A stretch of DNA of 64,000 nucleotides from an uncultured Gemmatimonadota bacterium. GTDB lineage: Bacteria > JAAXHH01. Position 1 is the stretch's first letter. Every line of letters begins with the position of its first letter. This document shows positions 10,838 to 49,909 of the stretch, one piece after another. The stretch lies in NCBI GenBank assembly GCA_951812955.1, contig OX638340.1, forward strand, positions 1,376,001 through 1,440,000, given 5' to 3'. Below the pieces are notes generated by a model. That model had not been told where the DNA came from and searched no databases. It was given only the letters and a program-made list of their open reading frames with translations. Both the position numbers and the translations under genes were made by a program.

Positions 10838-11011
10838 AGAAAGAATCCACAGTCAATTGAAAATATAACTCAATGATATTATTCCACTTAAGTTACTTCC
10901 TTCGACCAAGGCATATTTAAACAAAATTATGCTGGCTTCGAGATGATATGCATTCACCAAAGATCCTTCCATTGTACTAATGTTTCTTAAACGTCAGCCT
11001 TGTTAACCTAT

Positions 11012-12721
11012 TTATCGTTGAGTCAGTTGATTAGCACCCTGAGGTCGGACAATTGTTACCAAGTTACGAGCTCTGGTAATCCCAACTCTGAGAAGCCGAC
11101 GGCTACGATTGTAAGGAGGATGTTCTCGCTTTTCGTCAAAAAAACGTGATTCAAACTTGCCTTCCACTATAACGACGCCGTCGAATTCTTTGCCCTTACA
11201 CTTGTGCAAATTCATAAGCACGCATCCTTGTGGGTCACGCTCCAGCGCAAGCAGTAGTTCATGATTTAATACCTTCCGTATTGTAGCGGTTGCTTCTATG
11301 TAACTTCCAGACTCTAACCACAATTCCGATAGTGCTTTAGAAAGTACATCTGTAGCTTGAAACAAACGCACCATACTTGCTGACCGGAATACATCATTTA
11401 TCACTTTGTGTACCCTTAGAATATCTCTTGCACTACGCCAATCGGAAACTGGGTCACCGCGATATTCAATACCGTTGGATGCAATTTCTACCATATTTCT
11501 TGCAGCCTGAATACGCGGGAGGCGGCCCATTATTACCGCCTCTGATGCCTCGGCGAATTGCCGAGTTAGTTTCGAAGCAACTTTCGAATGTTGCTCGGCG
11601 TTTTTTAAGCGAAAATACCTTGAAAGGCAGGCAAGTGTATCTGAGACGGTTCTTGCATCAAATTCAGTTCGCCACTCCAATATGGATCCTACGATTTCAG
11701 CCGAGGAGGCCGATAGATTGGCATCCCATACCACATCGTGAGGTATTGGTTTTATCTCACGCTTTTTATAAACATGAGTATCTTGAAGTATCGCTGAAAG
11801 TTGCGCGACATGCCGATTGCTTTTAGTTAAGACTGCGACACACGGATTGTGAATTCCCTTCTTACGTAACAAAGCGATGGTAAAGTGAACTGCTGCATGA
11901 AAAACTGAGTCAAATCCATTCGGCCAGTAGTATTGAACTATCTTAACATTGCTAGTTTTGGGTAGCTCTTCATTGTTTAAGACAGCGTCTGCGAATGATA
12001 GGATTCCGGCTTGTGGACTTCTGTGATTGACCTTACCAAGATCGAACTCAGCGAAGCCAAGTGTAACCCTAGCTGAGTTTATCCTTTGGAAGCTTACAGT
12101 TGGTCGATAGTCAAATATGCACTGTTCCGGATCGGCTAGACATACTACATCAGTTACACTTGCCAATGATTTAATAAGTCGCCACTGGTCTTCGTCGGTA
12201 TCCTGAAACTCATCAACAATGATTAGCGGAAATCGATCGCCATACATGGATCTTACTGCTTCGCTTTCCGCGACAATCATTGCAGCTCCCTTTGCAAATT
12301 GATCAAAACAGTAGATTCCTTCTACTTGCGCAAGACGAACCTGTTCAGCCTCCCAATCTCCTTCAAAAAAAGACTTCTTCAATCGCTCACCTTTGGGAGT
12401 TAAAATACGAGTAGGGAATCCACCCAAAAGCCGCCCATGTCCTCGCAATATTTCACGACAAAAGAGATGGTAAGTCTTTACCTGAATAAGTCGACGTTCT
12501 TCATTCTTCAATAGGTCCTGACTCCTGCCTAGTATCTGGCGTATCGCTGCTCGTGAGAAGCTTAAGAACAGTATACCTTGACCGGGTTCAAGTCCCTTAC
12601 AGCGAGCTTTGGCTTTCAACAGTGCAATAGTTGTCTTGCCAGATCCAGGGCCACCCTTAACGAGCATGTGGCCTGTTTGATTGATAATAGATTGGTGGAT
12701 TTCTTTTAAATCTAGATTCAT
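11012..12721 (-). CDS. gajB: Gabija GajB, a UvrD/PcrA-like superfamily-1 helicase
   Basis: 569 aa. Walker A VKGGPGSGKTT, motif II IIVDEFQDTD (the DEFQD signature of the UvrD family), and a C-terminal …GVVIVEGKFE…RVGITRARNLVTIV helicase C-domain. The start ATG overlaps the gajA stop (ATGA at 12718-12721). Confidence 0.8.
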   Translation of the reverse strand: MNLDLKEIHQSIINQTGHMLVKGGPGSGKTTIALLKAKARCKGLEPGQGILFLSFSRAAIRQILGRSQDLLKNEERRLIQVKTYHLFCREILRGHGRLLGGFPTRILTPKGERLKKSFFEGDWEAEQVRLAQVEGIYCFDQFAKGAAMIVAESEAVRSMYGDRFPLIIVDEFQDTDEDQWRLIKSLASVTDVVCLADPEQCIFDYRPTVSFQRINSARVTLGFAEFDLGKVNHRSPQAGILSFADAVLNNEELPKTSNVKIVQYYWPNGFDSVFHAAVHFTIALLRKKGIHNPCVAVLTKSNRHVAQLSAILQDTHVYKKREIKPIPHDVVWDANLSASSAEIVGSILEWRTEFDARTVSDTLACLSRYFRLKNAEQHSKVASKLTRQFAEASEAVIMGRLPRIQAARNMVEIASNGIEYRGDPVSDWRSARDILRVHKVINDVFRSASMVRLFQATDVLSKALSELWLESGSYIEATATIRKVLNHELLLALERDPQGCVLMNLHKCKGKEFDGVVIVEGKFESRFFDEKREHPPYNRSRRLLRVGITRARNLVTIVRPQGANQLTQR

Positions 12722-14604
12722 GAATTATCGCCATTATCAGACGCTGATGGCTGTTGGTTATCGCCATTACAATCGGCACCTTCTTCTGATGATTTAACAG
12801 GAGGATCCAATACCAAGTTTAATGCTTCCAATACTGTTCTTATGAAATCCGGTAGCATTTCTCTTTCTTTGCAGTGCTCAATCAAGTTTGCGGCATATCC
12901 ATGTGCTTCACCTTTTCGAGCCTTTAGAACTCTTTTACACAAATCTTTCACATTGTCGTCGGACATTTCCGGACTGTATTGCCGTTCCTGTGGGTAATCC
13001 GATCGATGCCTTGCCTCATTGAGAAAGCTTCTTTGAACTTCAACTGATAACTCGGTCACTAGGAGTTCTTCAATTGAATAGAAGGGGGATTCCCAACTCT
13101 CATCGTAGGATTCCATATTTCGAACATCGTCTACCGACCAAGTGTCGTTATTGGGCTTGTCATAAACTGCAAAGGCAGGTTTCCCAAGTGCTGCGAAAGC
13201 AGGTCCATATCTCGGTATGTCCCCATAGCCTCCAGCATTGAATAAAACTATACCTGCGAGATCGGGATGAGTATAGTCTTGAGTGGGTGACGTATTCTCA
13301 ATAACAGTTGCTGCTGCAGAGAAAACCGAGGCTTCGGTAGATCCTTCGACTACGAGTACTGCTCGACTCAGGACTGCTTCGGCAAACTGTCTTCTATTGG
13401 TTTTGTATGTCTTCTCTTTGATTTCTCCGATATTAACAGGATTTCCCTTTAGAATAGTCTGTTCACGCTCAAGTATAACAATATCAGCTAGCTCGAACTG
13501 CTCTATCACATAAGGAGAGTGTGAGGTTACAATTGCTTGTCCCATCTCCTGAAGCACGAATTTCGTAACCCGACGTTGTGTATGAGGAGGTAACGCTATT
13601 TCTGGTTCTTCCATCGCGAAAATAACAGAATGCCTATCCTTTAATTCAGCAATAAAAGTTAGTAGTGCGAACACAAGCACGTTTATTGTGCCAGTTCCAA
13701 GTTTTTGGAATGGAACTAAATGATCACTTTCCTTCGAAGCTAAAAAGAACTTTACCACATTTCTCAAGTCGTTTCGTGTAAGGTCCGATGCAAAAAAGCC
13801 CGTTGCGTTTTTATCATCAGCAAGTTGGACAAACCGTGCGATCCTGTCACGAACTTCAGATTGAATTTCATTAAGTTGTTGAATGTCGCCAATTGCAGGT
13901 TGAAGATTACGTAAACGATATAATGTTTCTCCCCACATCTGACTAAGACCGGTGCCACCCAATCGGATTATCGTATCGAGCAGTGATCCCCTCTGGAGGC
14001 TTAGTGCTCTGGAACCAGTACGAAGTGCCCGTAAGAACAAGAACCCACAGAAGCGCTTGTGACTCCAAGTAAAGCGTGTCCGACCACTTCCCAGGACATT
14101 CTGTTCTTCAATTTCCTGCTCATCATCATCGATCACTTCAGGGACAGGGTATGCAAAAAACGAATCACCTTCAAAATCGTCTCTTTCTAATTCGTAACGT
14201 CCAAAGAACACAACAGGTAGCGCCCAGACAACTTCAGGCCGATCCGTTACCAACGGACCTTCATCTCCTTCATCAGCATAACATTGTTCTTTTACATTCC
14301 AATGTCGCAGATGGTTCTCGCCAAACCGACGAATTGCCTCGTCTGTAAGATCAACAAGTATTGCTTCGATCTCAATTACAACAGCCTCACCGTCATTAGT
14401 GAGATAGCTGTCTCGATGAAAATCGTGTTCGTCAACTACTGGCCTGCGATTTAGTCTTTCTGGTCCGAGTACTAAGTCAAGTGCCTCGCATACAGTCGAT
14501 TTCCCGCTATTGTTACCACCTACAAGTAGAACGTTATCGCCAAAGTGGATTTCACCATGTTTTATACCGCGGAAGTTTGCCATACGAAGTCTTACTACAC
14601 GCAT
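12718..14604 (-). CDS. gajA: Gabija GajA, an OLD-family ABC ATPase with a C-terminal TOPRIM nuclease domain
   Basis: The ORF-track start is 14733. The Met at 14604 (MRVVRLRMANFRG…) is preceded by GGAGGA with 8-nt spacing, so it is the more likely start. P-loop LVGGNNSGKST, OLD Walker-B/H-loop block IFAMEEPEIALPPH and TOPRIM motif LVVEGSTEASVF. 628 aa. Confidence 0.8.
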   Translation of the reverse strand: MRVVRLRMANFRGIKHGEIHFGDNVLLVGGNNSGKSTVCEALDLVLGPERLNRRPVVDEHDFHRDSYLTNDGEAVVIEIEAILVDLTDEAIRRFGENHLRHWNVKEQCYADEGDEGPLVTDRPEVVWALPVVFFGRYELERDDFEGDSFFAYPVPEVIDDDEQEIEEQNVLGSGRTRFTWSHKRFCGFLFLRALRTGSRALSLQRGSLLDTIIRLGGTGLSQMWGETLYRLRNLQPAIGDIQQLNEIQSEVRDRIARFVQLADDKNATGFFASDLTRNDLRNVVKFFLASKESDHLVPFQKLGTGTINVLVFALLTFIAELKDRHSVIFAMEEPEIALPPHTQRRVTKFVLQEMGQAIVTSHSPYVIEQFELADIVILEREQTILKGNPVNIGEIKEKTYKTNRRQFAEAVLSRAVLVVEGSTEASVFSAAATVIENTSPTQDYTHPDLAGIVLFNAGGYGDIPRYGPAFAALGKPAFAVYDKPNNDTWSVDDVRNMESYDESWESPFYSIEELLVTELSVEVQRSFLNEARHRSDYPQERQYSPEMSDDNVKDLCKRVLKARKGEAHGYAANLIEHCKEREMLPDFIRTVLEALNLVLDPPVKSSEEGADCNGDNQQPSASDNGDNS

Positions 14605-14686
14605 GCTATAGTCCTCCAAATGCAGTTTAATTTGCTTCGATATGAATACATCTTGGTTGTATTTGTAAGAATAGAAACTACCTACA

Positions 14687-15424
14687 TTATACGACATGCT
14701 CAGGATTTGACGGTTTTCTACGCCCAAACGCATACCTGAAAGTCACCCAGAGTATCTTCACTCCCGCCCGGACCGCCCCGGACAGCGTTCCCGTGATCTT
14801 GGAAACCCCGACCCGCTTCCGGTACCGCACCGGGACGTCGAGGGTGCGGTACTTCCTTTGTGCTGCCTTGATCTGCATTTCGACGGTCCAGCCAAAGTTT
14901 TGATCCGCCATTTCGAGCTCGAGCAGCCTGTCGTAGCGTATGGCCCGGAACGGTCCCAGATCGGTATATCGATGTCCGTAGAGCCAACGGATGATCCTGG
15001 GAACGAGGACGTTGCCTATCACGGCCTGGACCGGCATGGCGCCCGGCGCGCGGTGTCCCAGCATCCGTGACCCGATCACCATGTCGTAACCCGCTTCCAC
15101 GACCGGGCGCACCAGGTCTGCCAAGTCTTCTGGGTAATCGCTGTAATCGCCGTCCAGGAACACGATGACGTCCGGATCGAACCGGGCGGCCTCGGCCATG
15201 CCGCGCAGGCAGGCGGCCCCGTACCCGCGCCGGGGTTCCTTCACGACGACCGCGCCACCCTCCGCGGCCACTGCCCCGGTCCGGTCCGTCGAACCGTTGT
15301 CCACGACGATTACGGCCGTGGCCATCCCCTCCGGAATGTGTGCCAGGACCAGTCCGATCGAATCCTCTTCGTTCAGGACCGGAATGATGACCACGATGGT
15401 CTGTTTGTCCGCTGATCTTGCCAT
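14687..15424 (-). CDS. Family-2 glycosyltransferase (dolichyl-phosphate mannosyltransferase-like)
   Basis: …IVVIIPVLNEEDSIGLVLAHIP…VVDNGSTDRTG…VIVFLDGDYSDYPED… is a GT2 fold with a DxD motif. Start chosen at MARSADKQ (15424); the ORF track extends to 15505. Confidence 0.75.
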   Translation of the reverse strand: MARSADKQTIVVIIPVLNEEDSIGLVLAHIPEGMATAVIVVDNGSTDRTGAVAAEGGAVVVKEPRRGYGAACLRGMAEAARFDPDVIVFLDGDYSDYPEDLADLVRPVVEAGYDMVIGSRMLGHRAPGAMPVQAVIGNVLVPRIIRWLYGHRYTDLGPFRAIRYDRLLELEMADQNFGWTVEMQIKAAQRKYRTLDVPVRYRKRVGVSKITGTLSGAVRAGVKILWVTFRYAFGRRKPSNPEHVV

Positions 15425-28857: not shown

Positions 28858-29252
28858 CGTAAAACGTCCAAGCCGACCGTAAGCCGAGTTCTGTACCTTC
28901 GCGGTGAAGGTGGCGATCATCTATCTGGGACGGCTGTCGCCAGCCGCCTCGTGCGACCTAACCCGAGAGTCTCCGGTTTCCCGGCGGTCGAGACGGGCCG
29001 TCTCTCCTCTCCTATTCGGTCTTGCACCGGATGGGGTTTGTCCTGCCGGACCGGTTACCCGGACCGCGGTGAGCTCTTACCTCGCCTTTTCACCTTTGCC
29101 TCCCCGAAGGGATCGGCCGTGTGTTTTCTGTGACACTTTCCGTGGCATCACTGCCCCCTGCCGTTAGCAGGCATCCCGCCCTGTGGTGCTCGGACTTTCC
29201 TCGTCCGCGCGATGGCGAACGCGATCGCCTGGACGACTTGTGACGTTTTACA
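28858..29252 (-). ncRNA. rnpB: RNase P RNA, bacterial type A (M1 RNA)
   Basis: The minus-strand sequence carries the universally conserved blocks AGGAAAGTCCGAGCACCACAGGGC (CR-I), …AAAGGTGAAAAGGCGAGGTAAGAGCTCACC… and ACAGAACTCGGCTTACGG (P4 3' strand). The P1 stem forms between AAAACGTC at the 5' end (~29249) and GACGTTTT at the 3' end (~28861). Length ~395 nt. Confidence 0.85.
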
Positions 29253-42440: not shown

Positions 42441-42545
42441 TGAAGCCGTGTCCGGGCCTGAAGCCGTGTCCGGGCCTGAAGCCGTGTCCGGGCCTGAAGC
42501 CGCGGCCGGGCCTGAAGCCGCGTCCGGGCCTGAAGCCGCGTCGAC
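42441..42545. repeat. 18-nt tandem repeat (tgaagccgtgtccgggcc, ~6 copies) immediately upstream of, and in frame with, the sigma-54 regulator gene
   Basis: Three perfect copies at 42441-42494, then gcggcc/gcgtcc variants. Would encode (PEAVSG)n if translated. Confidence 0.9.
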
Positions 42546-42573
42546 CTTTCCCTTGCCATCCACACCTTATACC

Positions 42574-44229
42574 ATGAACGGTCCGACAGAATCCGTCATC
42601 CTGCTGGTTGAAGGTTCCTCCCGCGGTCGGGACGAAAAACACTACGGCCTGACTCAGCGCGGTTACCAGGTGATCGCCGTGGAGAGCAGCGACCATGCGC
42701 TCAATGTCCTTGCCGCGGAATCCCCGGATGTCATCATATCGGACCTCAACGCACCGGGCATAGACGGTCTGCGCCTGATGGGCGTCGCACTCGGCAGGAA
42801 TCCGGAGGTCGGCGTAATCCTGACGACGGAACCCGGTTCCATGGGCCTGGCCGTCGCCGCCATGAAGGAGGGAGCATACGACGTACTGGAAACACCCGTG
42901 TACGTTGAAAAGCTCGCGGCCGAGATCGAAAAGATCCTGGACCGGCAGCGCATCGTTCAGGAAAACCGGAAACTTCTGCACCAGTTGGACAACCGGTATG
43001 GGTTCGAGAACATCGTGGGACGGTCCGCGTCCATGCAGCGCATACGAGAGCAGATTCTGCAGATCGCCGATACCCAGTCCACGGTGTTGATCTTCGGTGA
43101 GAGCGGCACTGGCAAGGAACTGGTGGCCCATGCCCTGCACCACGGCAGTTCCCGCCGGAACAAGTCCTTTGTGCCCGTATTCTGCAACGCCCTCTCGGAA
43201 GGGGTGATCGAAAGCGAACTGTTCGGCCACGAAAGAGGCGCTTTCACGAATGCGGTCAAGACGTACAAGGGACGGTTTGAACTGGCTGACGGCGGCTCGC
43301 TTTTTCTCGACGAGGTGGGTGAACTTGCGCCGTCCACGCAGGTGAAGCTGCTGAGGGTCCTGCAGGAACGCAAGTTCCAGCGGGTGGGCAACGGGAACTG
43401 GCTCAGGACGGACACGCGGGTCATCGCGGCGACGAACCGGGACCTGGAAGCCGAAATCGAAAACGGGCGCTTCCGGGAAGACCTCTATTACCGACTGAGA
43501 GTCGTGACCATCTCTCTCCCTCCCCTGCGAGAGCGTAAAGAAGACCTGCCCCTGCTGATCGATCACTGCATTCGACGCTTCAGCGAACGGGAGAACAAAC
43601 CTATCGAGCGTATCGACCCGCAGGCCCTGGAACTGCTGTCGACCTACCACTGGCCGGGAAACGTGCGGCAACTGGAGAACTGCATCGAGGGCATGATCGT
43701 CATGGGCACCGGGAAAACACTGACCGTGGAGGACGTCCCGGAATTCATACGGCATACACGGTCGGAATCTCCAGCGGTCCCGTTGAACGACGACCCGGAG
43801 CGCCGGGACGACATCTCGCCGGACTTCATCCGCTACCTGGCCGGTAAAATCGCCGAACAGCGCAATGTGCCCGTGCGAAGCCTCACCGACGGAGCCCTGG
43901 CCGTACTTTCCGCGATCGACTGGTCGGAGGACGGCGGATCGCTGCGCCGCTGTCTGGAAACCATGGTTTTGCTCGCCGACGGGGCCGCCCTGGACGTGGA
44001 GGACATCCCGGTGGAGTTTCTGCTCGTCCGTTCCGGCCGTCCTGATGAGGGTGGAGAGGACGCAGACGGGGTGGACATCAGGGTGGGCATGTCGATGAAG
44101 GAAAGCGAACGGCGGCTGATCGCTGCGACCCTGGCCGCATGCGGCCGGAACAAGGCGCGGACCGCGCGGGTACTGCAGATCGGCCAGCGCACCCTCTTTC
44201 GGAAAATAAAGGCCTATCACCTGGAATAG
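42574..44229 (+). CDS. Sigma-54-dependent Fis-family response regulator (NtrC-type enhancer-binding protein)
   Basis: Start chosen at [14 protein letters not shown]; the ORF track extends into the repeat at 42448. Receiver domain with phospho-Asp context ([11 protein letters not shown]); AAA+ sigma54-interaction motifs ([31 protein letters not shown]); C-terminal Fis HTH. Confidence 0.8.
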
Positions 44230-44250
44230 TGTTTGCCGAGGAGTCCCGCA

Positions 44251-45816
44251 TTGGAAGGTCGGACGATACTTGTCGTCGACGGCGAAGAAGACAGCCGGCG
44301 CCACGCGGCGCGCATCCTGCGGGATGGGGGGTACGACGTGCAGGAGACCGGCGCCGCGGCCGAGGCGCTGAGCACGATGAGGAAGGACCCGCCGGATGCC
44401 GTCCTCATCGATCTCGCCTTGAGCGACGCCGATCCGGAACGATTGATACGCACCATTTCGGGGAAATACCCCGATATCGATATCGTTCTCACCACGCGGC
44501 AGCGCAAGGCGCCCGGCCAGTACCGCCGGCTCGACGTCAGCGACTATATCGAGAAACCGGCCGATGCCGGGGAACTGTTGACCAAGATGCGCATGCTGGA
44601 CCTGCGCCGTGAGTTTCACCGGCGGTTCCAGCTCGTTGGCAGGGACGAGCGCTTCATCGCTGCCATGGAATCGGTGCTCCAGGTGGCGCCCACGGGAATC
44701 CAGGTCCTGCTCACCGGAGAAAGCGGCACCGGCAAGGAGGGATTCGCCCGGGCGATACACCACTACAGCGATCGACGGGACGGGCCCTTCATTCCTATAA
44801 ACTGCGGCGCCATTGCCGAAGGCGTGTTGGAAAGCGAGCTGTTCGGCCACGAAAAAGGCGCGTTTACAGACGCCAAGGGCCAGCGTAAGGGATACTTCGA
44901 ACAGGCCGACGGCGGCACGCTGCTTCTCGACGAAATCGGCGATATGCCCCGTTCCACACAGGTGAAGCTGCTGCGCGTCCTGGAGCAGCAGGAATTCATC
45001 CGGGTCGGCGGCTCGACACCGGTGAAGACCGACGTCCGCCTGGTCGCCTCGACCAATCGGGATCTCGCGGAGGACATCAGGGACGGGACGTTTCGTCAGG
45101 ATCTATACTACCGGCTCAACGCGGTGAACATCCACTTGCCCGCGCTGCGTGAACGCCGCGAGGACATTCCCAGGCTGATTCACCACTTCATCCACGCGGC
45201 ACAGGAAAAGCACGGCGTGTCACCTCCCGTTTTCACGGAGGAAGCCCTGGCGACCCTCAAGGACTACGAATGGCCGGGCAACATCCGGGAACTGCGGCAC
45301 CTGGTCGAGTCCCTCGTGGTCACGTCGGGCAAATCCAGGATCGAAGCGGAAGACCTGCCGGATGCGATCTACACGCCGCCCATGGATAACCGCGCCCTGC
45401 CCGTCCCGCAGCACCGGAACCCGGATGACATGGACCGGGAGATGTTCTACAAGATCCTCTGGCAGATCCTGACCGCCATCCACGAGCTCCCCGCCAAGAT
45501 CTCCGCGGCCATTGGCGGCCGAGGCCCCGATGTGCTTCCCGATCGATTTCAACTGCCGCCCCCGGGAGAAGCGGAGCAGGACGACGGACCGCCCTCAGGG
45601 GAAGCTGGACCTGGCTTGGAACGGCCGGCCGTGGTGGTTTCGAGCGATGACGAACTGGACCGGCTGCGCTCGATGGAAGACTGGGAGCGGGAGGCCATCC
45701 GGCGGGCGCTAGAGCGCAATGGCGGGCACAGGGGCCGGGCCGCCCGGGAACTCGGCATCAGCGAGCGGTCAATCTACCGCAAGATCCGGGACTACGGCCT
45801 GGACGAATACGCCTGA
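44251..45816 (+). CDS. Sigma-54-dependent Fis-family response regulator, a second NtrC-type enhancer-binding protein in tandem
   Basis: A TTG start at 44251 has a GAGGAG RBS 7 nt upstream; the ORF-track start is 44233. Receiver (ILVVDGEED…VLIDLALSD), [23 protein letters not shown]-terminal HTH (…ARELGISERSIYRKI). Confidence 0.8.
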   Translation: MEGRTILVVDGEEDSRRHAARILRDGGYDVQETGAAAEALSTMRKDPPDAVLIDLALSDADPERLIRTISGKYPDIDIVLTTRQRKAPGQYRRLDVSDYIEKPADAGELLTKMRMLDLRREFHRRFQLVGRDERFIAAMESVLQVAPTGIQVLLTGESGTGKEGFARAIHHYSDRRDGPFIPINCGAIAEGVLESELFGHEKGAFTDAKGQRKGYFEQADGGTLLLDEIGDMPRSTQVKLLRVLEQQEFIRVGGSTPVKTDVRLVASTNRDLAEDIRDGTFRQDLYYRLNAVNIHLPALRERREDIPRLIHHFIHAAQEKHGVSPPVFTEEALATLKDYEWPGNIRELRHLVESLVVTSGKSRIEAEDLPDAIYTPPMDNRALPVPQHRNPDDMDREMFYKILWQILTAIHELPAKISAAIGGRGPDVLPDRFQLPPPGEAEQDDGPPSGEAGPGLERPAVVVSSDDELDRLRSMEDWEREAIRRALERNGGHRGRAARELGISERSIYRKIRDYGLDEYA

Positions 45817-45922: not shown

Positions 45923-46246
45923 GTGGGAAATCCAACAGCGATCACAGACGACCAATTCGAGACCGAAGTAATCAACAGCAGCACGCCTGTACTGGTCGAT
46001 TTCTGGGCGGAATGGTGCGGGCCCTGCAAGGCCGTCGCCCCCACGCTTGTCGAGCTGGCGGGCGACTATGACGGACGCTTGAAAATCGTCAAGGTCGACG
46101 TGGACGAAAACCGGGAAGCAGCCACCCGTTTCGGTATCCGGAGTATTCCGAGCCTGTTGATATTCAAGGACGGGGCCGAAGTGGACCGGATTATCGGCGC
46201 GCTCCCCAAGCAGCAACTCGCCGAAAAGATCGACGGTCATCTGTAG
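45923..46246 (+). CDS. trxA: Thioredoxin
   Basis: 107 aa. WAEWCGPCK active site. GTG start with GGAG RBS. Confidence 0.9.
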   Translation: MGNPTAITDDQFETEVINSSTPVLVDFWAEWCGPCKAVAPTLVELAGDYDGRLKIVKVDVDENREAATRFGIRSIPSLLIFKDGAEVDRIIGALPKQQLAEKIDGHL

Positions 46247-47099
46247 CAATTATGTGTCAGTAGTGTTTTTTTTGTCCTCTTGCTTTGAGATGCGTGACCA
46301 TAGGCTACTTACATAACACCCAAAGATACTAATCTATCGTAATTGATGTATCTTAGGAGTTGTGGTGTAACCAATTGATATTTTTATATTTAAGTTAAAA
46401 ACCCATTTGAGTTCTGCCTTTGCGAGAGGCTATGTATAACTTAGGTCTAGTAATCAATTTATATAAACTCCATCAGACTACTCCAAACAGTCCATCCACA
46501 CACCCCCGTAACCATACCCTCCAGTTTTTCCGTTTCTAGCCCCACGACGCAATAAACACTCCATATAAAATCTAACGACTATTCTGTCTTCGTACCGCGG
46601 CAATGTGATCTATATCCAAGTATTGGCTATATCGGTACTGTTCTATAGATCCTTACATTTGATTCAATGGCCTAAGCACTAGCTTCTACACCGTACCATA
46701 ATACCAGATGGCGTAATATTGCGCGTCAGACTGAGTTATCGATTTGCCGTTTTAAAGACAGTATGGGGTTTTACCTGTGGTGGCGAAAATAACAACCAAT
46801 GCCTACCAGCTTGTTATTTCTACTTGATTGCAATCGTTTAAATTAAGTTTGGCTATTTATGGCGAATAAAAGTGGATATTGTCTCAAAATGATATATTAG
46901 GTAAAAATAATCAACTTTAAATTATGACAGTATAAACTGTATAAATTATTGTAATTAGATTCTATTAGTGTTGTTAATTGATTTATTCTGTATGCAGGTG
47001 ATGATATTTTGATCTTGACTTAAGATTATGGATCATTTTATTTAGTGCAGTCATAGTTGGAAATATCACATTGACCGATCATCCAGGGAGGATTACATC

Positions 47100-47522
47100 A
47101 TGGAAGGGTCAGATAGGAGAAGAGATGAGGATTATGTTAATATGCAACGCTTCGTTAAACTTGAACAAAGAGTTGAGAAGCTGGAGCTGTTATTCAACGA
47201 TAAACCATCGGTGCCAATTAAGCCAAAGAAGGAAACATTGCGTGAGTTTATTAAAGGAAAACAGCCACGAAATGATGTAGAAAGAACTATATGCATCCTT
47301 TACTACCGTGAGTTGACAGAAGGCATGGGCGAAACAACTTCCACTGACTTGAAAAATGGATTTAGGCACGCGCGGGAAAAGGTGCCAGCAAATGTATCCG
47401 CTAAACTGGGATTATGCGCTAAGAGAGGGTTCATTGACAGCGTTAGGGAAGAAAAAGGAAAGATCTACTGGTCGATAACAAATACTGGTATTGATTTTGT
47501 GGATGGGCTTAAAACGGAGTGA
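47100..47522 (+). CDS. Hypothetical protein A of a three-gene island cassette. It has a coiled-coil N-terminus and a C-terminal winged-helix-like domain.
   Basis: 140 aa. GGGAGG RBS 8 nt upstream of the ATG. The C-terminal KGKQPRNDVERTICILYY…GFIDSV…IYWSITNTG segment is paralogous to protein B. Confidence 0.5.
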   Translation: MEGSDRRRDEDYVNMQRFVKLEQRVEKLELLFNDKPSVPIKPKKETLREFIKGKQPRNDVERTICILYYRELTEGMGETTSTDLKNGFRHAREKVPANVSAKLGLCAKRGFIDSVREEKGKIYWSITNTGIDFVDGLKTE

Positions 47523-47529
47523 TGAACCT

Positions 47530-48057
47530 ATGAACCTTGTAGATATTGTTAAACAATCTGAAAATGTTGTGGAAGAAAGCAAGGTTAGTGAGGAATATCG
47601 GGCCACTGCCTTTAAAACTGTATTGGAGTTTCTATTAAGTAACAATGATCCATCGATGGACGCACATTCTTCAAACAACATTATTGTAGACCGGACTCAA
47701 GTAACTGTAGTTGAAAACGGTGATTATGAGGAACTTATAGCTGTTAAACAGCCAAAAAACGATTATGAAATCGTAGCCTGCATCGTATATCACTTAACTG
47801 GTGGGATTGTATCAAATTCAGTTACTAGAGTTGAGTTGCTAGATTACATACATCAGAACCCGGGAAACCTTAAAGGTCTTAAGAATCTGAGTGGCGTTAT
47901 TAAGCATACAAGAAGTAATCCATATTATGGATACATAGAAAATGTTAAAGATGCTGAAGAATCCAGTTTTCGACTTTCTGCTCGAGGAAAACAGTTGATA
48001 GATCGATTGCCTGGTAGAGAAGATAAAAAACGTGTAAGATCTACTACTAAAAACTGA
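47530..48057 (+). CDS. Hypothetical protein B of the three-gene cassette, with a C-terminal winged-helix-like domain paralogous to protein A
   Basis: Start at MNLVDIV (GGAG RBS); the ORF track starts at 47491. It shares the KQPxNDxE…CI[LV]Y…T…[DE]L… block with protein A. Confidence 0.5.
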   Translation: MNLVDIVKQSENVVEESKVSEEYRATAFKTVLEFLLSNNDPSMDAHSSNNIIVDRTQVTVVENGDYEELIAVKQPKNDYEIVACIVYHLTGGIVSNSVTRVELLDYIHQNPGNLKGLKNLSGVIKHTRSNPYYGYIENVKDAEESSFRLSARGKQLIDRLPGREDKKRVRSTTKN

Positions 48058-48074
48058 GTCTACTGGAGTTCTTA

Positions 48075-48863
48075 ATGGATTTAATGGTCAAAGATGTAGA
48101 AACTATACTTGTCTCGACTTTTAAGCGAAATTATGTCCATTCCGTGTTAAATCATTATACAAAAGCAGTTGAAGGTTTTGTCTGTAGAAACTGGGATTCT
48201 GCACTGACTAATGCTGGAAAATTCGTGGAAGCATCATTGAAAGTACTATGTTCATTTACAGGGAGCGAAGTACCCGGAGGTCCGAAGTTTAAAGTTGATA
48301 AGGCTATCGTTTCTCTTGAGCAAACTAATGCAGATACTGATCGATCTGTAAGACTAACTATACCACGAGCTTGTCGGTTTCTTTTTGATATAGTCAGTAA
48401 TCGTGGCGCTCGACATGACTCCGACGAATTTACCCCATCTAAAGCAGATGCAAGTGTAGTATTACCAACTATTTCATGGATTCTTGCGGAAATGTTACGT
48501 CTAGCTAGCAGGAACGTATCTGATAGTGGTAAGGTCGAAGAATTGATTGATCAAATCACAGCAAAAAAGAACCCAATCTACGAAACTATCGACGGCAGGA
48601 CGTATGTAAACCACCCTGGACTTTCTTTAAACAAAATAGCAATGTTATTACTGTATAAAGCCTATCCTAGAAGGATTCTTAGGAGAGACCTAGCAGAACA
48701 ACTCAAACTTAATAATAGCAGTTCCAAAAAACCTGCGATCAGAATGGCTTTGACACGTCTTAAAGACATTGTGGATGAAAACGATAGTGGAATGGTTATA
48801 CGTCAAAATGGCAGAGAACAAGCTGAAACATTGATCTCCTTTATAAGTACAGACGGTCATTAA
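48075..48863 (+). CDS. Hypothetical protein C of the three-gene cassette: an N-terminal alpha-helical domain with an RNRGARHDSDEF segment, and a C-terminal winged-helix
   Basis: 262 aa, GGAG RBS. The C-terminus …LNKIAMLLLYKAYPRRILRRDLAEQLKL…AIRMALTRLKD… is a classic wHTH. The N-terminal domain has no confident family match. Confidence 0.5.
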   Translation: MDLMVKDVETILVSTFKRNYVHSVLNHYTKAVEGFVCRNWDSALTNAGKFVEASLKVLCSFTGSEVPGGPKFKVDKAIVSLEQTNADTDRSVRLTIPRACRFLFDIVSNRGARHDSDEFTPSKADASVVLPTISWILAEMLRLASRNVSDSGKVEELIDQITAKKNPIYETIDGRTYVNHPGLSLNKIAMLLLYKAYPRRILRRDLAEQLKLNNSSSKKPAIRMALTRLKDIVDENDSGMVIRQNGREQAETLISFISTDGH

Positions 48864-48997
48864 ATCGCGAAACTGCGTTAGTGGCTGTTATGTGATACGA
48901 TAATAGTCAGTTGGAGACGGGAATGTAGCTACCTGCTCTCCCGGCTTTTGTATATGATCCGGTCTGAAGGATCGAACAGCATGCGGAGACCAGGGAC

Positions 48998-49909
48998 ATG
49001 CAGGGCGTCGTACGCAGACTGAAAGACGGTTTGGCCAGAACGCGGGACGGACTGGTACGAAGGATCGACCAGGCCGTGGGACGGTATGACCGCATCGACG
49101 AAGACCTGCTGGAGGAAATCGAATCCATCCTGCTGCAGACCGACGTGGGCATGGAAACGACCATGCGGATCATCGACGGACTGCGCGACCGCGCGGTCGA
49201 CAGCCGGACCCGGAATCCCGAAGACCTCATGAGGCTGCTCCGCGAGGAAATGGCGGGTATCCTGAGCGATCCGGCACCTGCTGAATCAGACCGCAGTCCC
49301 CATGTCATCATGGTCGTGGGCGTCAACGGGTCGGGCAAAACGACGACCGCGGGGAAGATGGCGGCGCGTTATGTCCGGGAAGGGAAGAAGGTTCTGCTGG
49401 CCGCGGCGGATACTTTCCGCGCGGCGGCCATCGATCAGCTGGAAGTCTGGGCGCGCCGGGCGGAGGCGGACCTCATCCGTCACCAGCACGGTTCCGATCC
49501 GTCGGCCGTGGCCTTCGACGCGATGCAGGCCGCCCTGTCCCGGAATGCGGACGTCCTCATCATCGACACGGCGGGCAGGTTGCACACCAAGGACAACCTG
49601 ATGGAGGAACTGAAGAAGATCAAGCGTACCCTCGGCAGGCAACTGGACGGCGCCCCCCACGAGGTGCTGCTCGTTCTCGACGGCACGACGGGACAGAATG
49701 CGCTATCCCAGGCCCGCGTCTTCAGCGAAGCCCTGGGCGGACTGACTGGCATCGCGCTTACGAAGCTGGACGGGACCGCCCGAGGCGGCATCGTGTTCGC
49801 CATCGGCGAGCAACTGGCCGTTCCCGTCAAACTCATCGGCGTGGGTGAAAGCATCGAGGATCTGCAGGATTTCGACGCCCCAGCCTTCGTGGAAGCCCTC
49901 TTCGACTGA
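48998..49909 (+). CDS. ftsY: Signal-recognition-particle receptor FtsY (NG domain only)
   Basis: 303 aa. SRP54-type GTPase motifs VVGVNGSGKTTT, DTAGR and TKLDG. Confidence 0.9.
   Translation: MQGVVRRLKDGLARTRDGLVRRIDQAVGRYDRIDEDLLEEIESILLQTDVGMETTMRIIDGLRDRAVDSRTRNPEDLMRLLREEMAGILSDPAPAESDRSPHVIMVVGVNGSGKTTTAGKMAARYVREGKKVLLAAADTFRAAAIDQLEVWARRAEADLIRHQHGSDPSAVAFDAMQAALSRNADVLIIDTAGRLHTKDNLMEELKKIKRTLGRQLDGAPHEVLLVLDGTTGQNALSQARVFSEALGGLTGIALTKLDGTARGGIVFAIGEQLAVPVKLIGVGESIEDLQDFDAPAFVEALFD

Follow-up and report, generated by a model that had tools for sequence, protein, structure and literature searches.

The low-GC block at positions 46250 to 48990 of the window (i.e., the whole 64,000-nt stretch of DNA analyzed) is a self-contained three-gene operon. 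Comparison with related loci shows that this operon is, in its gene composition, a rare form of a widespread cassette, unnamed in databases, which consists of one to four small winged-helix genes followed by a gene encoding a HEPN domain fused to a winged helix-turn-helix (wHTH). From this comparative analysis we infer, with moderate confidence, that the module most resembles a toxin-antitoxin (TA) or abortive-infection system in which an RNase would be restrained by its winged-helix partners. The block has a GC content of 38.1%, compared with 62.4% and 63.3% for the two flanking 5-kb stretches; it is thus the low-GC island that had been predicted, although the figure of ~35% given for it was inexact. 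It lies exactly between a thioredoxin ORF (trxA; 45923 to 46246, with a WCGPC motif) and an FtsY-type GTPase ORF (ftsY; 48998 to 49909), and these two ORFs bear out the borders originally proposed. Its only ORFs (A, B, and C) are co-directional and tightly packed, and GGGAGG or GGAG lies ahead of each start, so that each gene has its own RBS. This agrees with the arrangement described beforehand except for the gaps, which measure 7 nt (A-B) and 17 nt (B-C) rather than 8 and 18 nt. The features are as follows.

46250 to 47099, no strand: AT-rich upstream spacer, 35% GC, without a conserved ORF or RNA (from the ORF list)
47100 to 47522, plus strand: gene A, 140 aa, winged helix by structure
47530 to 48057, plus strand: gene B, 175 aa from ATG, paralogous to A by BLASTP and hhalign
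48075 to 48863, plus strand: gene C, 262 aa (ORF)
48075 to 48539, plus strand: N-terminal HEPN-fold domain of gene C (residues 1 to ~155; by structure), a predicted metal-independent RNase
48228 to 48242, plus strand: E52-x3-K56, the Ex3[KR] hallmark of HEPN domains (alignment of 215 members)
48396 to 48419, plus strand: S108-N-R110-G-A-R113-H114-D115, predicted active-site motif, non-canonical (alignment of 215 members)
48567 to 48863, plus strand: C-terminal part of gene C
48864 to 48997, no strand: short intergenic region from the C stop codon to the start of ftsY, forming the island's right edge (by composition)

Gene C joins a HEPN fold to a C-terminal winged helix and is predicted to encode a HEPN-type RNase with a DNA- or RNA-binding winged helix. 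Its N-terminal domain adopts the four/five-helix up-down bundle of HEPN domains; the original prediction, which had seen no recognizable enzymatic domain in the island, was right for sequence libraries but not for structure. The Ex3[KR] motif, defined for HEPN domains in PMC3710099, provides the second conserved acidic residue and reads E52-A-S-L-K56 in gene C; among the 215 aligned members, E is kept in 213 and K or R in 193. H114 (210/215) and R110 (207/215), together with E52 and D125, are near-invariant. The motif of gene C itself, SNR110GAR113H114, is of the form Rx3H/RH, and the absence of a literal Rx4-6H, which in HEPN domains sits between core helices three and four with a polar residue following the R, counts against the RNase reading. 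At the columns aligned to this motif, 72 of the 215 members carry the canonical R[NS]xR[GDN]xxH (i.e., Rx6H), which, with the fold, bears out an early hunch of a HEPN domain. The two candidate arginines are mutually exclusive: R113 alone is found in 140 members, including gene C, R107 alone in 72, both in none, and neither in 3. In gene C, the arginine has thus shifted with respect to the histidine, from position -7 to -1. The segment had been spelled RNRGARHDSDEF; the sequence actually reads SNRGARHDSDEF.

Gene A encodes a low-confidence N-terminal helix (residues 15 to 33) and, after it, a PadR/MarR/RosR-like winged helix-turn-helix (residues ~45 to 140), and belongs to an unannotated A/U superfamily. 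The PadR/MarR-like fold extends by homology to gene B, the C-terminal ~100 residues of which are paralogous to the A winged helix (BLASTP E of 3e-6 over the KQPxND...CI.Y block; 92-94% over ~100 residues in profile-profile comparison by hhalign, with values of 92.5% and 94%). A homologous C-terminal block in A and B had been recognized at the outset, and the proposal that all three proteins are paralogous is upheld for this pair but not for C, which gave BLASTP E values of >2 and hhalign probabilities of <=15% against A/B. The winged helix of C was accordingly rejected as an A/B paralog at the profile level, and C has only the generic wHTH fold in common with them. The N-terminal helical region of B resembles the N termini of some partner proteins of family X, and an HMM of the B family matches one such protein (L090_2). 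In most other operons, the slot occupied by B directly upstream of C is taken by family Y. B orthologs of 175 to 184 aa are present at loci L085, L086, L001, and L087.

Across related loci, one to four small winged-helix genes from shuffled families lie directly upstream of C in 67 of 69 cases, the same order as in the island and as the small upstream DNA-binding-type gene plus toxin gene of generic type II TA operons. The partners belong to at least three families (i.e., A/U/B, X/Z/V, and Y), and an independent look-up of A/U-type partner genes found them once more at the head of such operons. Exactly A-B-C is a rare composition, seen only in the island's own lineage and one other (L001/L087), with partners of other families elsewhere; the expected synteny therefore stands for small winged-helix genes preceding C but not for an exact A-B-C order in unrelated genomes. 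In the operon at L092, the third position is occupied by another gene, which has an RNxxxH motif; this suggests that effectors are exchangeable. The C family comprises 955 clusters at 50% identity from many bacterial phyla, with members in Acidobacteriota, Patescibacteria, Proteobacteria, Nitrospira, Omnitrophota, Bdellovibrionales, and others.

Searches with Pfam, NCBIfam, PADLOC, and PHROGs profiles yielded no match for A, B, or C, which, given the recurrence of small winged-helix genes before C, agrees with the uncharacterized conserved multigene system first proposed. In PADLOC-DB v2.0.0, none of the three proteins had a match at E<=1, and relatives of C and representatives of the U, X, Y, and V partners gave chance-level matches only (E>=0.008). 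Pfam likewise gave no match, and in particular none to NTP_transf_2, for A, for B, or for proteins representing the X, Y, Z, V, and U partner families. Sequence searches of the PDB, run with profiles of C and A and with B and the L092 effector, returned nothing meaningful, and literature searches returned no description of the operon. Homology to phage structural or plasmid replication proteins, named beforehand as the finding that would speak against a new system, did not appear: profiles were silent, no relatives were found by a pattern scan of IMG/VR (2.9 million viral contigs), by tblastn against INPHARED (50,697 phage records), or by Foldseek against BFVD, and PLSDB gave a single distant plasmid match (archaeal Natronomonas PL131). 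A phage or plasmid origin was rejected on these grounds.

The 139 nearest large neighbor genes (~75 loci) matched 118 different Pfam families, and type I RM, ResIII, integrase, and resolvase genes were found at two loci each, so there is no defense-island signal among the nearest neighbors sampled. Co-localization with defense genes, which had been anticipated, proved occasional rather than systematic (e.g., L001 adjoins RM and PIN genes, whereas its relative L087 does not). The nearest neighbors also included no enzyme gene that regularly accompanies the operon, and no conserved regulated target genes lie beside it. The absence of both a PADLOC match and a defense-island signal counts against a defense reading. 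The missing defense-island context would also suit a purely regulatory cassette, in which C would be a transcription factor with its HEPN fold as a non-catalytic sensor or dimerization module (like the mannitol repressor MtlR, which has a HEPN fold), A and B would be co-regulators, and nothing would be cleaved. All three proteins have winged-helix domains, which are typical of PadR/MarR-type regulators, some HEPN domains are non-catalytic (e.g., MtlR and nucleotidyltransferase fusions; PMC3710099), and gene C departs from canonical Rx4-6H spacing. However, non-catalytic HEPN domains typically lose the Arg/His motif (PMC3710099), whereas here its residues are near-invariant and the second arginine has been relocated, not lost, and the operon has no conserved regulated targets beside it. 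We therefore consider a regulatory cassette unlikely.

Less probable again is a specific RNA-binding or RNA-processing factor, in which HEPN and winged helix would recognize, cut, or merely bind structured RNAs in a physiological role, like the HEPN and ROQ domains of Roquin, with A and B as adaptors. The topology differs in Roquin, where ROQ forms an insertion in the HEPN domain; the Roquin HEPN is moreover non-catalytic, split around ROQ, eukaryotic, and without a partner operon. The patchy phylum distribution of the family, an operon GC below that of the host (46 of 48 loci), and the combinatorial shuffling of partner families are signatures of mobile conflict modules and not of conserved RNA metabolism.

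In the TA or abortive-infection reading, which we prefer, C would act as an RNase, either a toxin or an effector. A and B, whose genes come first on the shared transcript and would be translated before C, would bind C and/or the operon DNA and keep the RNase silent, in the manner of the antitoxin and regulator of a tripartite type II TA system or of the WH protein in type IX retrons. Loss or titration of a partner (e.g., when a phage infects, under stress, or when the element is lost) would release C, which would then cut cellular or invader RNA and bring about growth arrest. The winged helix of C would anchor it to nucleic acid or guide it there. The operon logic of the TA reading derives from the short gaps, the separate RBSs, and the small genes upstream of a predicted toxin, and in type II TA dyads a small gene likewise lies upstream of the toxin (PMC3710099). 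Three or more DNA-binding-type proteins are an unusual number, which counts against a simple TA system. A broader joint reading is more tentative, and we rate it as possible but somewhat doubtful: the cassette may represent an unnamed, widespread anti-phage or addiction system (~1000 clusters at 50% identity, mostly from soil Acidobacteriota and CPR) in which a HEPN-wHTH ribonuclease would be under shuffled A/U/B, X/Z/V, and Y partners acting as interchangeable sensors or inhibitors, with a swappable effector (L092) and one large clade having a relocated catalytic arginine.

Several known systems resemble the operon in part. HEPN-MNT systems of TA types II and VII (e.g., SO_3166/SO_3165 and the Aphanizomenon HEPN-MNT) have an adjacent MNT gene, whereas the island partners are winged-helix proteins; in addition, C has its own C-terminal winged helix, its motif is RH/Rx3H rather than Rx4H, and it has no detectable sequence similarity to PF05168-type HEPN domains. 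Tripartite type II TA systems (e.g., paaR-paaA-parE and HipBST) comprise a regulator, an antitoxin, and a toxin. The island is like them in having three co-transcribed genes, of which two encode small upstream proteins with DNA-binding folds and the downstream one a predicted enzymatic toxin, a likeness of architecture alone, without homology. The comparison draws on general background and on PMC9325769. AbiJ/AbiV/AbiD-F-type proteins are HEPN RNase effectors of phage defense, some with HTH-type N-terminal domains, whereas in C the HEPN domain is N-terminal and the wHTH C-terminal, and no PADLOC or Pfam model matches C. The type IX retron is similar by description, in that it combines a non-canonical HEPN nuclease with a separately encoded winged-helix protein: in Retron-Kva2, a WH protein encircles the active site of the HEPN protein and keeps the latter inactive until infection releases it, leading to abortive infection by RNA cleavage (10.64898/2026.07.14.738597). 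The island differs in having neither an RT gene nor an msr/msd RNA (three ORFs only, no RVT match, no Rfam match, and a spacer evolving near neutrality), in a winged helix carried by the HEPN protein itself, and in two small partners (one to four elsewhere).

The operon family has spread by horizontal transfer across many phyla, with the operon lower in GC than its flanks at 46 of 48 loci, and is kept under purifying selection. The island had been taken for a fresh acquisition, but orthologous islands occupy the same site between trxA and ftsY in two diverged relatives, at dS values of 0.65 to >1.3. The dN/dS ratio is 0.08-0.20 for the three genes (0.10-0.20 for B). Retention of one chromosomal site through substantial divergence fits addiction or housekeeping as well as defense.

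The spacer accounts for ~850 nt of the block without a conserved ORF. Only its last ~100 nt are common to the orthologous islands, with a promoter-proximal block, TTTGaTCTTGAC, at ~47003 to 47022, and its identity to L085 (0.49-0.62) is close to the neutral expectation (pS of 0.44-0.53). Remnants of the system's protein families, a cross-species conserved peptide, and Rfam or tRNA matches were all sought in the spacer and not found, and no Rfam match lies in or near the island; a hidden gene or RNA was rejected on this evidence. Such a long upstream spacer is not general in the family (median, 225 nt). At the right edge, GC climbs back to the host level, and the DNA can be aligned with L085 and L086 through to ftsY; a simple scan found no terminator-like site there. 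A promoter and terminator scan of the island gave nothing above shuffle expectation, and no convincing att sites or flanking repeats were found at it.

A low-GC island with a long gene-free stretch could also be what is left of a prophage, plasmid, or integrative element after decay, with genes (e.g., for repressors or replication initiators) that no longer make up a functional unit, and a few related loci do adjoin serine recombinases or integrases. This explanation is highly improbable: no relatives were found in the viral and phage collections and only the one distant match among plasmids, the island has no integrase, att repeat, or tRNA, A, B, and C are intact and under the selection noted above, and the same compact arrangement, free of mobile-element genes, is seen again at 67 of 69 loci.

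If the mechanism inferred for the TA or abortive-infection reading is right, the cassette would represent a new and abundant class of HEPN conflict module, regulated by winged-helix proteins and not by nucleotidyltransferases, CARF domains, or retron DNA, and the small low-GC islets of this genome would be compact conflict cassettes. The family is concentrated in Acidobacteriota, Patescibacteria, and Nitrospira, in which defense and TA biology is almost untried. The either/or placement of the arginine (Rx6H or RH) offers a naturally occurring test of how catalytic geometry works in HEPN RNases. Since families C, A/U/B, X/Z/V, and Y all lack a Pfam model, defining them would annotate thousands of "hypothetical proteins." In line with the islets being conflict cassettes, the other low-GC islet in the window is a Gabija system.

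The low-GC island at 46250-48990 has a GC content of 38.1%, compared with 62.4% and 63.3% in the 5 kb on either side, and its left edge lies directly after a thioredoxin stop codon. It contains three co-directional genes (A, B, and C), separated by gaps of 7 nt (A/B) and 17 nt (B/C) and each preceded by GGGAGG or GGAG at the start.

45923-46246: thioredoxin ORF with a WCGPC motif
46250-47099: upstream spacer (~850 nt)
47100-47522: gene A, 140 aa
47530-48057: gene B, 175 aa
48075-48863: gene C, 262 aa
48998-49909: FtsY-type GTPase ORF, with 134 nt between gene C and its start

The longest ORF in the spacer has at most 41 codons, and searches of this region found no tRNA, Rfam family, remnant of the system's protein families, or flanking repeats suggestive of att sites. 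None of the three proteins had a match with a meaningful E value in Pfam, NCBIfam, PADLOC, or PHROGs, and relatedness of C to the paralogous winged-helix proteins A and B was undetectable by BLASTP or profiles.

The predicted structure of C is very confident (pLDDT 92.5). A 2013 census gave two hallmarks of the HEPN superfamily, namely, an Rx4-6H motif in which a polar residue follows the arginine and a further conserved acidic residue within an Ex3[KR] motif; the Arg/His motif is typically lost from noncatalytic HEPN domains (PMC3710099). C belongs to this superfamily by its fold and Ex3K motif, the literal Rx4-6H being replaced in its clade. In an alignment of 215 full-length family members, the Ex3[KR] motif is represented by E52 (213 members) and K/R56 (193 members), and H114, R110, and D125 are present in 210, 207, and 213 members, respectively. 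The canonical Rx6H form, R107-[N/S]-x-R110-[G/D/N]-x-x-H114, occurs in 72 of the 215; another 140, including C of the window ([A/V]-S-N-R-G-A-R113-H114), lack R107 and carry an arginine directly before H114. No member has both R107 and R113, and three have neither. Such a strict either/or pattern would be expected if function demands one arginine next to the histidine and this residue was relocated in one clade, and we regard it as the strongest sequence-level argument that the HEPN domain of C, a predicted RNase, is catalytic. The invariance of the Arg/His/Glu set in the family also argues against a purely regulatory, MtlR-like transcription factor with a HEPN fold.

A word-indexed search recovered 254 relatives of C, and HMMER, run exhaustively against 1.84 billion cluster representatives, recovered 955 at E ≤ 1e-3 (678 at E ≤ 1e-10). 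Almost every full-length relative is 250 to 265 aa long, indicating a fixed architecture. Scanning one genome per species with motif patterns characteristic of R113-type proteins, by which Rx6H-type operons are under-sampled, yielded 80 loci, all in metagenome-assembled genomes (MAGs). Acidobacteriota form the majority; the others include Patescibacteria/CPR, Alpha- and other Proteobacteria, Nitrospira, Omnitrophota, Gemmatimonadota, Verrucomicrobiia, and Bdellovibrionales. In about 7 of the 80 loci (L075, L078, L079, L080, L081, L083, and L084), mostly from long-read MFD MAGs, C is split into two adjacent ORFs, reflecting either assembly frameshifts (possibly errors in nanopore-derived MAGs) or true pseudogenization of a potentially toxic gene. 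Searches of IMG/VR viral contigs (pattern-based scan), phage GenBank records, and BFVD structures turned up no relatives. The sole archaeal or plasmid relative found is a distant homolog on Natronomonas pharaonis plasmid PL131 (WP_011324391.1; 290 aa; L088 4980-5852), which has a canonical RNNRDSVH motif and adjoins an ISH6-like transposase. It lacks an abutting small co-directional gene, and the closest gene upstream lies 524 nt away on the opposite strand.

To define partner families, ORFs upstream of C were clustered by BLAST and used to build HMMs; ORFs in related loci were simple longest-ORF calls, which in high-GC loci include spurious antisense ORFs. Among the 69 loci for which 1.6 kb or more of upstream sequence was available, 67 have one to four small genes directly upstream of C, all in the same direction as C and drawn from a few families.

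Gene orders in related operons (U, V, X, Y, and Z are partner families)
X-Y-C: 17 of 69 loci, the commonest arrangement
X-X-Y-C: 5 of 69 loci
A-B-C: 2 of 69 loci (the window and L001), with further cases in L085 to L087, outside the census
L090: U-X-C
L089: U-A-C, with a canonical RNRRDVGH in C
L092, 5001-7174: U-V-(244-aa protein)-X

Profile comparison placed the partners in three groups, namely, A/U/B, X/Z/V, and Y, the last standing apart with weak similarity to A/U across the winged-helix region. The N-terminal helix of B resembles the N termini of some X members, indicating that domains have been shuffled among partner families. The A/U superfamily profile matched 840 proteins, all about 150 aa long and unannotated, and the three on long contigs that we looked up (L089, L090, and L092) each head such an operon. 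The 244-aa protein of L092 is not homologous to C; it carries the precomputed Pfam label PF27235 (AF_1680) and an RNSCGH motif near its C terminus, and it might serve as a different HEPN-type effector for the same partner families. This locus tentatively suggests that the effector is exchangeable while the partners are retained. In two V-A-X-X-C loci (L030 and L043), about 350 nt lying some 400 to 1,200 nt upstream of the operon's first gene are flanked by an inverted repeat of ~46 nt that is 96% identical between the loci.

Two short metagenomic contigs (L085 and L086) carry orthologous islands at the same trxA-ftsY junction, with C proteins 80% and 69% identical to that of the window, respectively. 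DNA identity to the window is 86 to 87% in the flanks and 72 to 77% in the island coding part, and the spacer is barely alignable except for its last ~100 nt. For A, B, and C, dS ranges from 0.65 to 2.9 and dN/dS from 0.08 to 0.20. The island is thus functional and older than the divergence of these organisms, and the original prediction that it was freshly acquired does not hold, although its GC content is still 24 points below that of the host. Selection on the genes, together with the lack of phage or plasmid relatives (the distant PL131 homolog aside), argues strongly against a decayed mobile-element remnant. Operon GC is below flank GC in 46 of 48 family loci (mean, 6.7 points), which, with the patchy phyletic spread, points to recurrent horizontal transfer. 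These mobility signatures argue against a Roquin-like factor that binds a specific RNA.

The analysis shows the folds (that of B by homology to A), the motifs, the A/B paralogy, the operon structure, the conserved association of small winged-helix genes with the HEPN-wHTH gene, purifying selection, and signatures of mobility. In the mechanism that we propose, C would be an RNase effector or toxin held inactive by A and B, which would be translated first from the shared mRNA and would probably autoregulate the operon promoter; freed C would cleave RNA and cause growth arrest. The gene order mirrors that of type II and tripartite toxin-antitoxin (TA) systems (PMC3710099). The closest worked-out precedent is the type IX retron Kva2, in which a separately encoded winged-helix protein (together with msDNA) encircles a HEPN nuclease without the canonical motif until a phage nuclease triggers the HEPN protein (10.64898/2026.07.14.738597). 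Unlike a retron, the operon has no reverse transcriptase or noncoding RNA. It also differs from HEPN-MNT modules (no nucleotidyltransferase), CRISPR ancillary nucleases (no CARF domain), and all PADLOC-listed systems, and our literature search found no published description of the operon. We read it as a putative HEPN-based TA/abortive-infection-type module with novel winged-helix partners and a predicted relocation of a catalytic arginine.

The 139 nearest large neighbors of the operons fall into 118 different Pfam families, with nothing conserved beyond the operon; type I restriction-modification (RM), ResIII, tyrosine integrase, and serine recombinase genes occur at two loci each. The module may act as an addiction element or in abortive-infection defense. 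The lack of defense-island context and the long stay at one site tilt toward TA-like behavior; the shuffling of the partners and the Gabija system found in a similar islet of the window are compatible with defense. In the L001/L087 lineage, A'-B'-C' follows an EPSP synthase gene (L001 9163-14650; L087 from 8889), and A' (307 to 319 aa) has an additional N-terminal domain. Immediately downstream in L001, but not in L087, are a type I/IIG RM specificity/methylase pair, a PIN gene, and a YopA-like gene; the locus acts like a hotspot of conflict genes. An RVT_1 reverse transcriptase gene in L087 (13313-14872; 519 aa), ~4.5 kb downstream on the opposite strand, is probably unrelated to the operon (group II intron or retron) but is of interest in view of the parallel with type IX retrons.

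Other features of the window are as follows.

11012-14733 (-): complete Gabija system in the other low-GC islet (about 11000-14750; 43 to 48% GC)
28865-29240 (-): bacterial RNase P RNA class A (274.8 bits), the sole Rfam match in the window
42448-45816 (+): two tandem response-regulator/sigma-54-activator-type ORFs (593 and 527 aa) with a GESGTGKE Walker motif, just upstream of trxA

The Gabija proteins matched PADLOC profiles for GajB (569 aa; E = 1e-183) and GajA (671 aa; E = 4e-221), and this islet, like the HEPN operon, is compact and set in housekeeping surroundings. A 934-aa antisense ORF over the sigma-54-activator-type genes is probably spurious; the first of these genes (593 aa) opens with a short tandem peptide repeat (five copies of a 12-letter unit; about 42450-42540).
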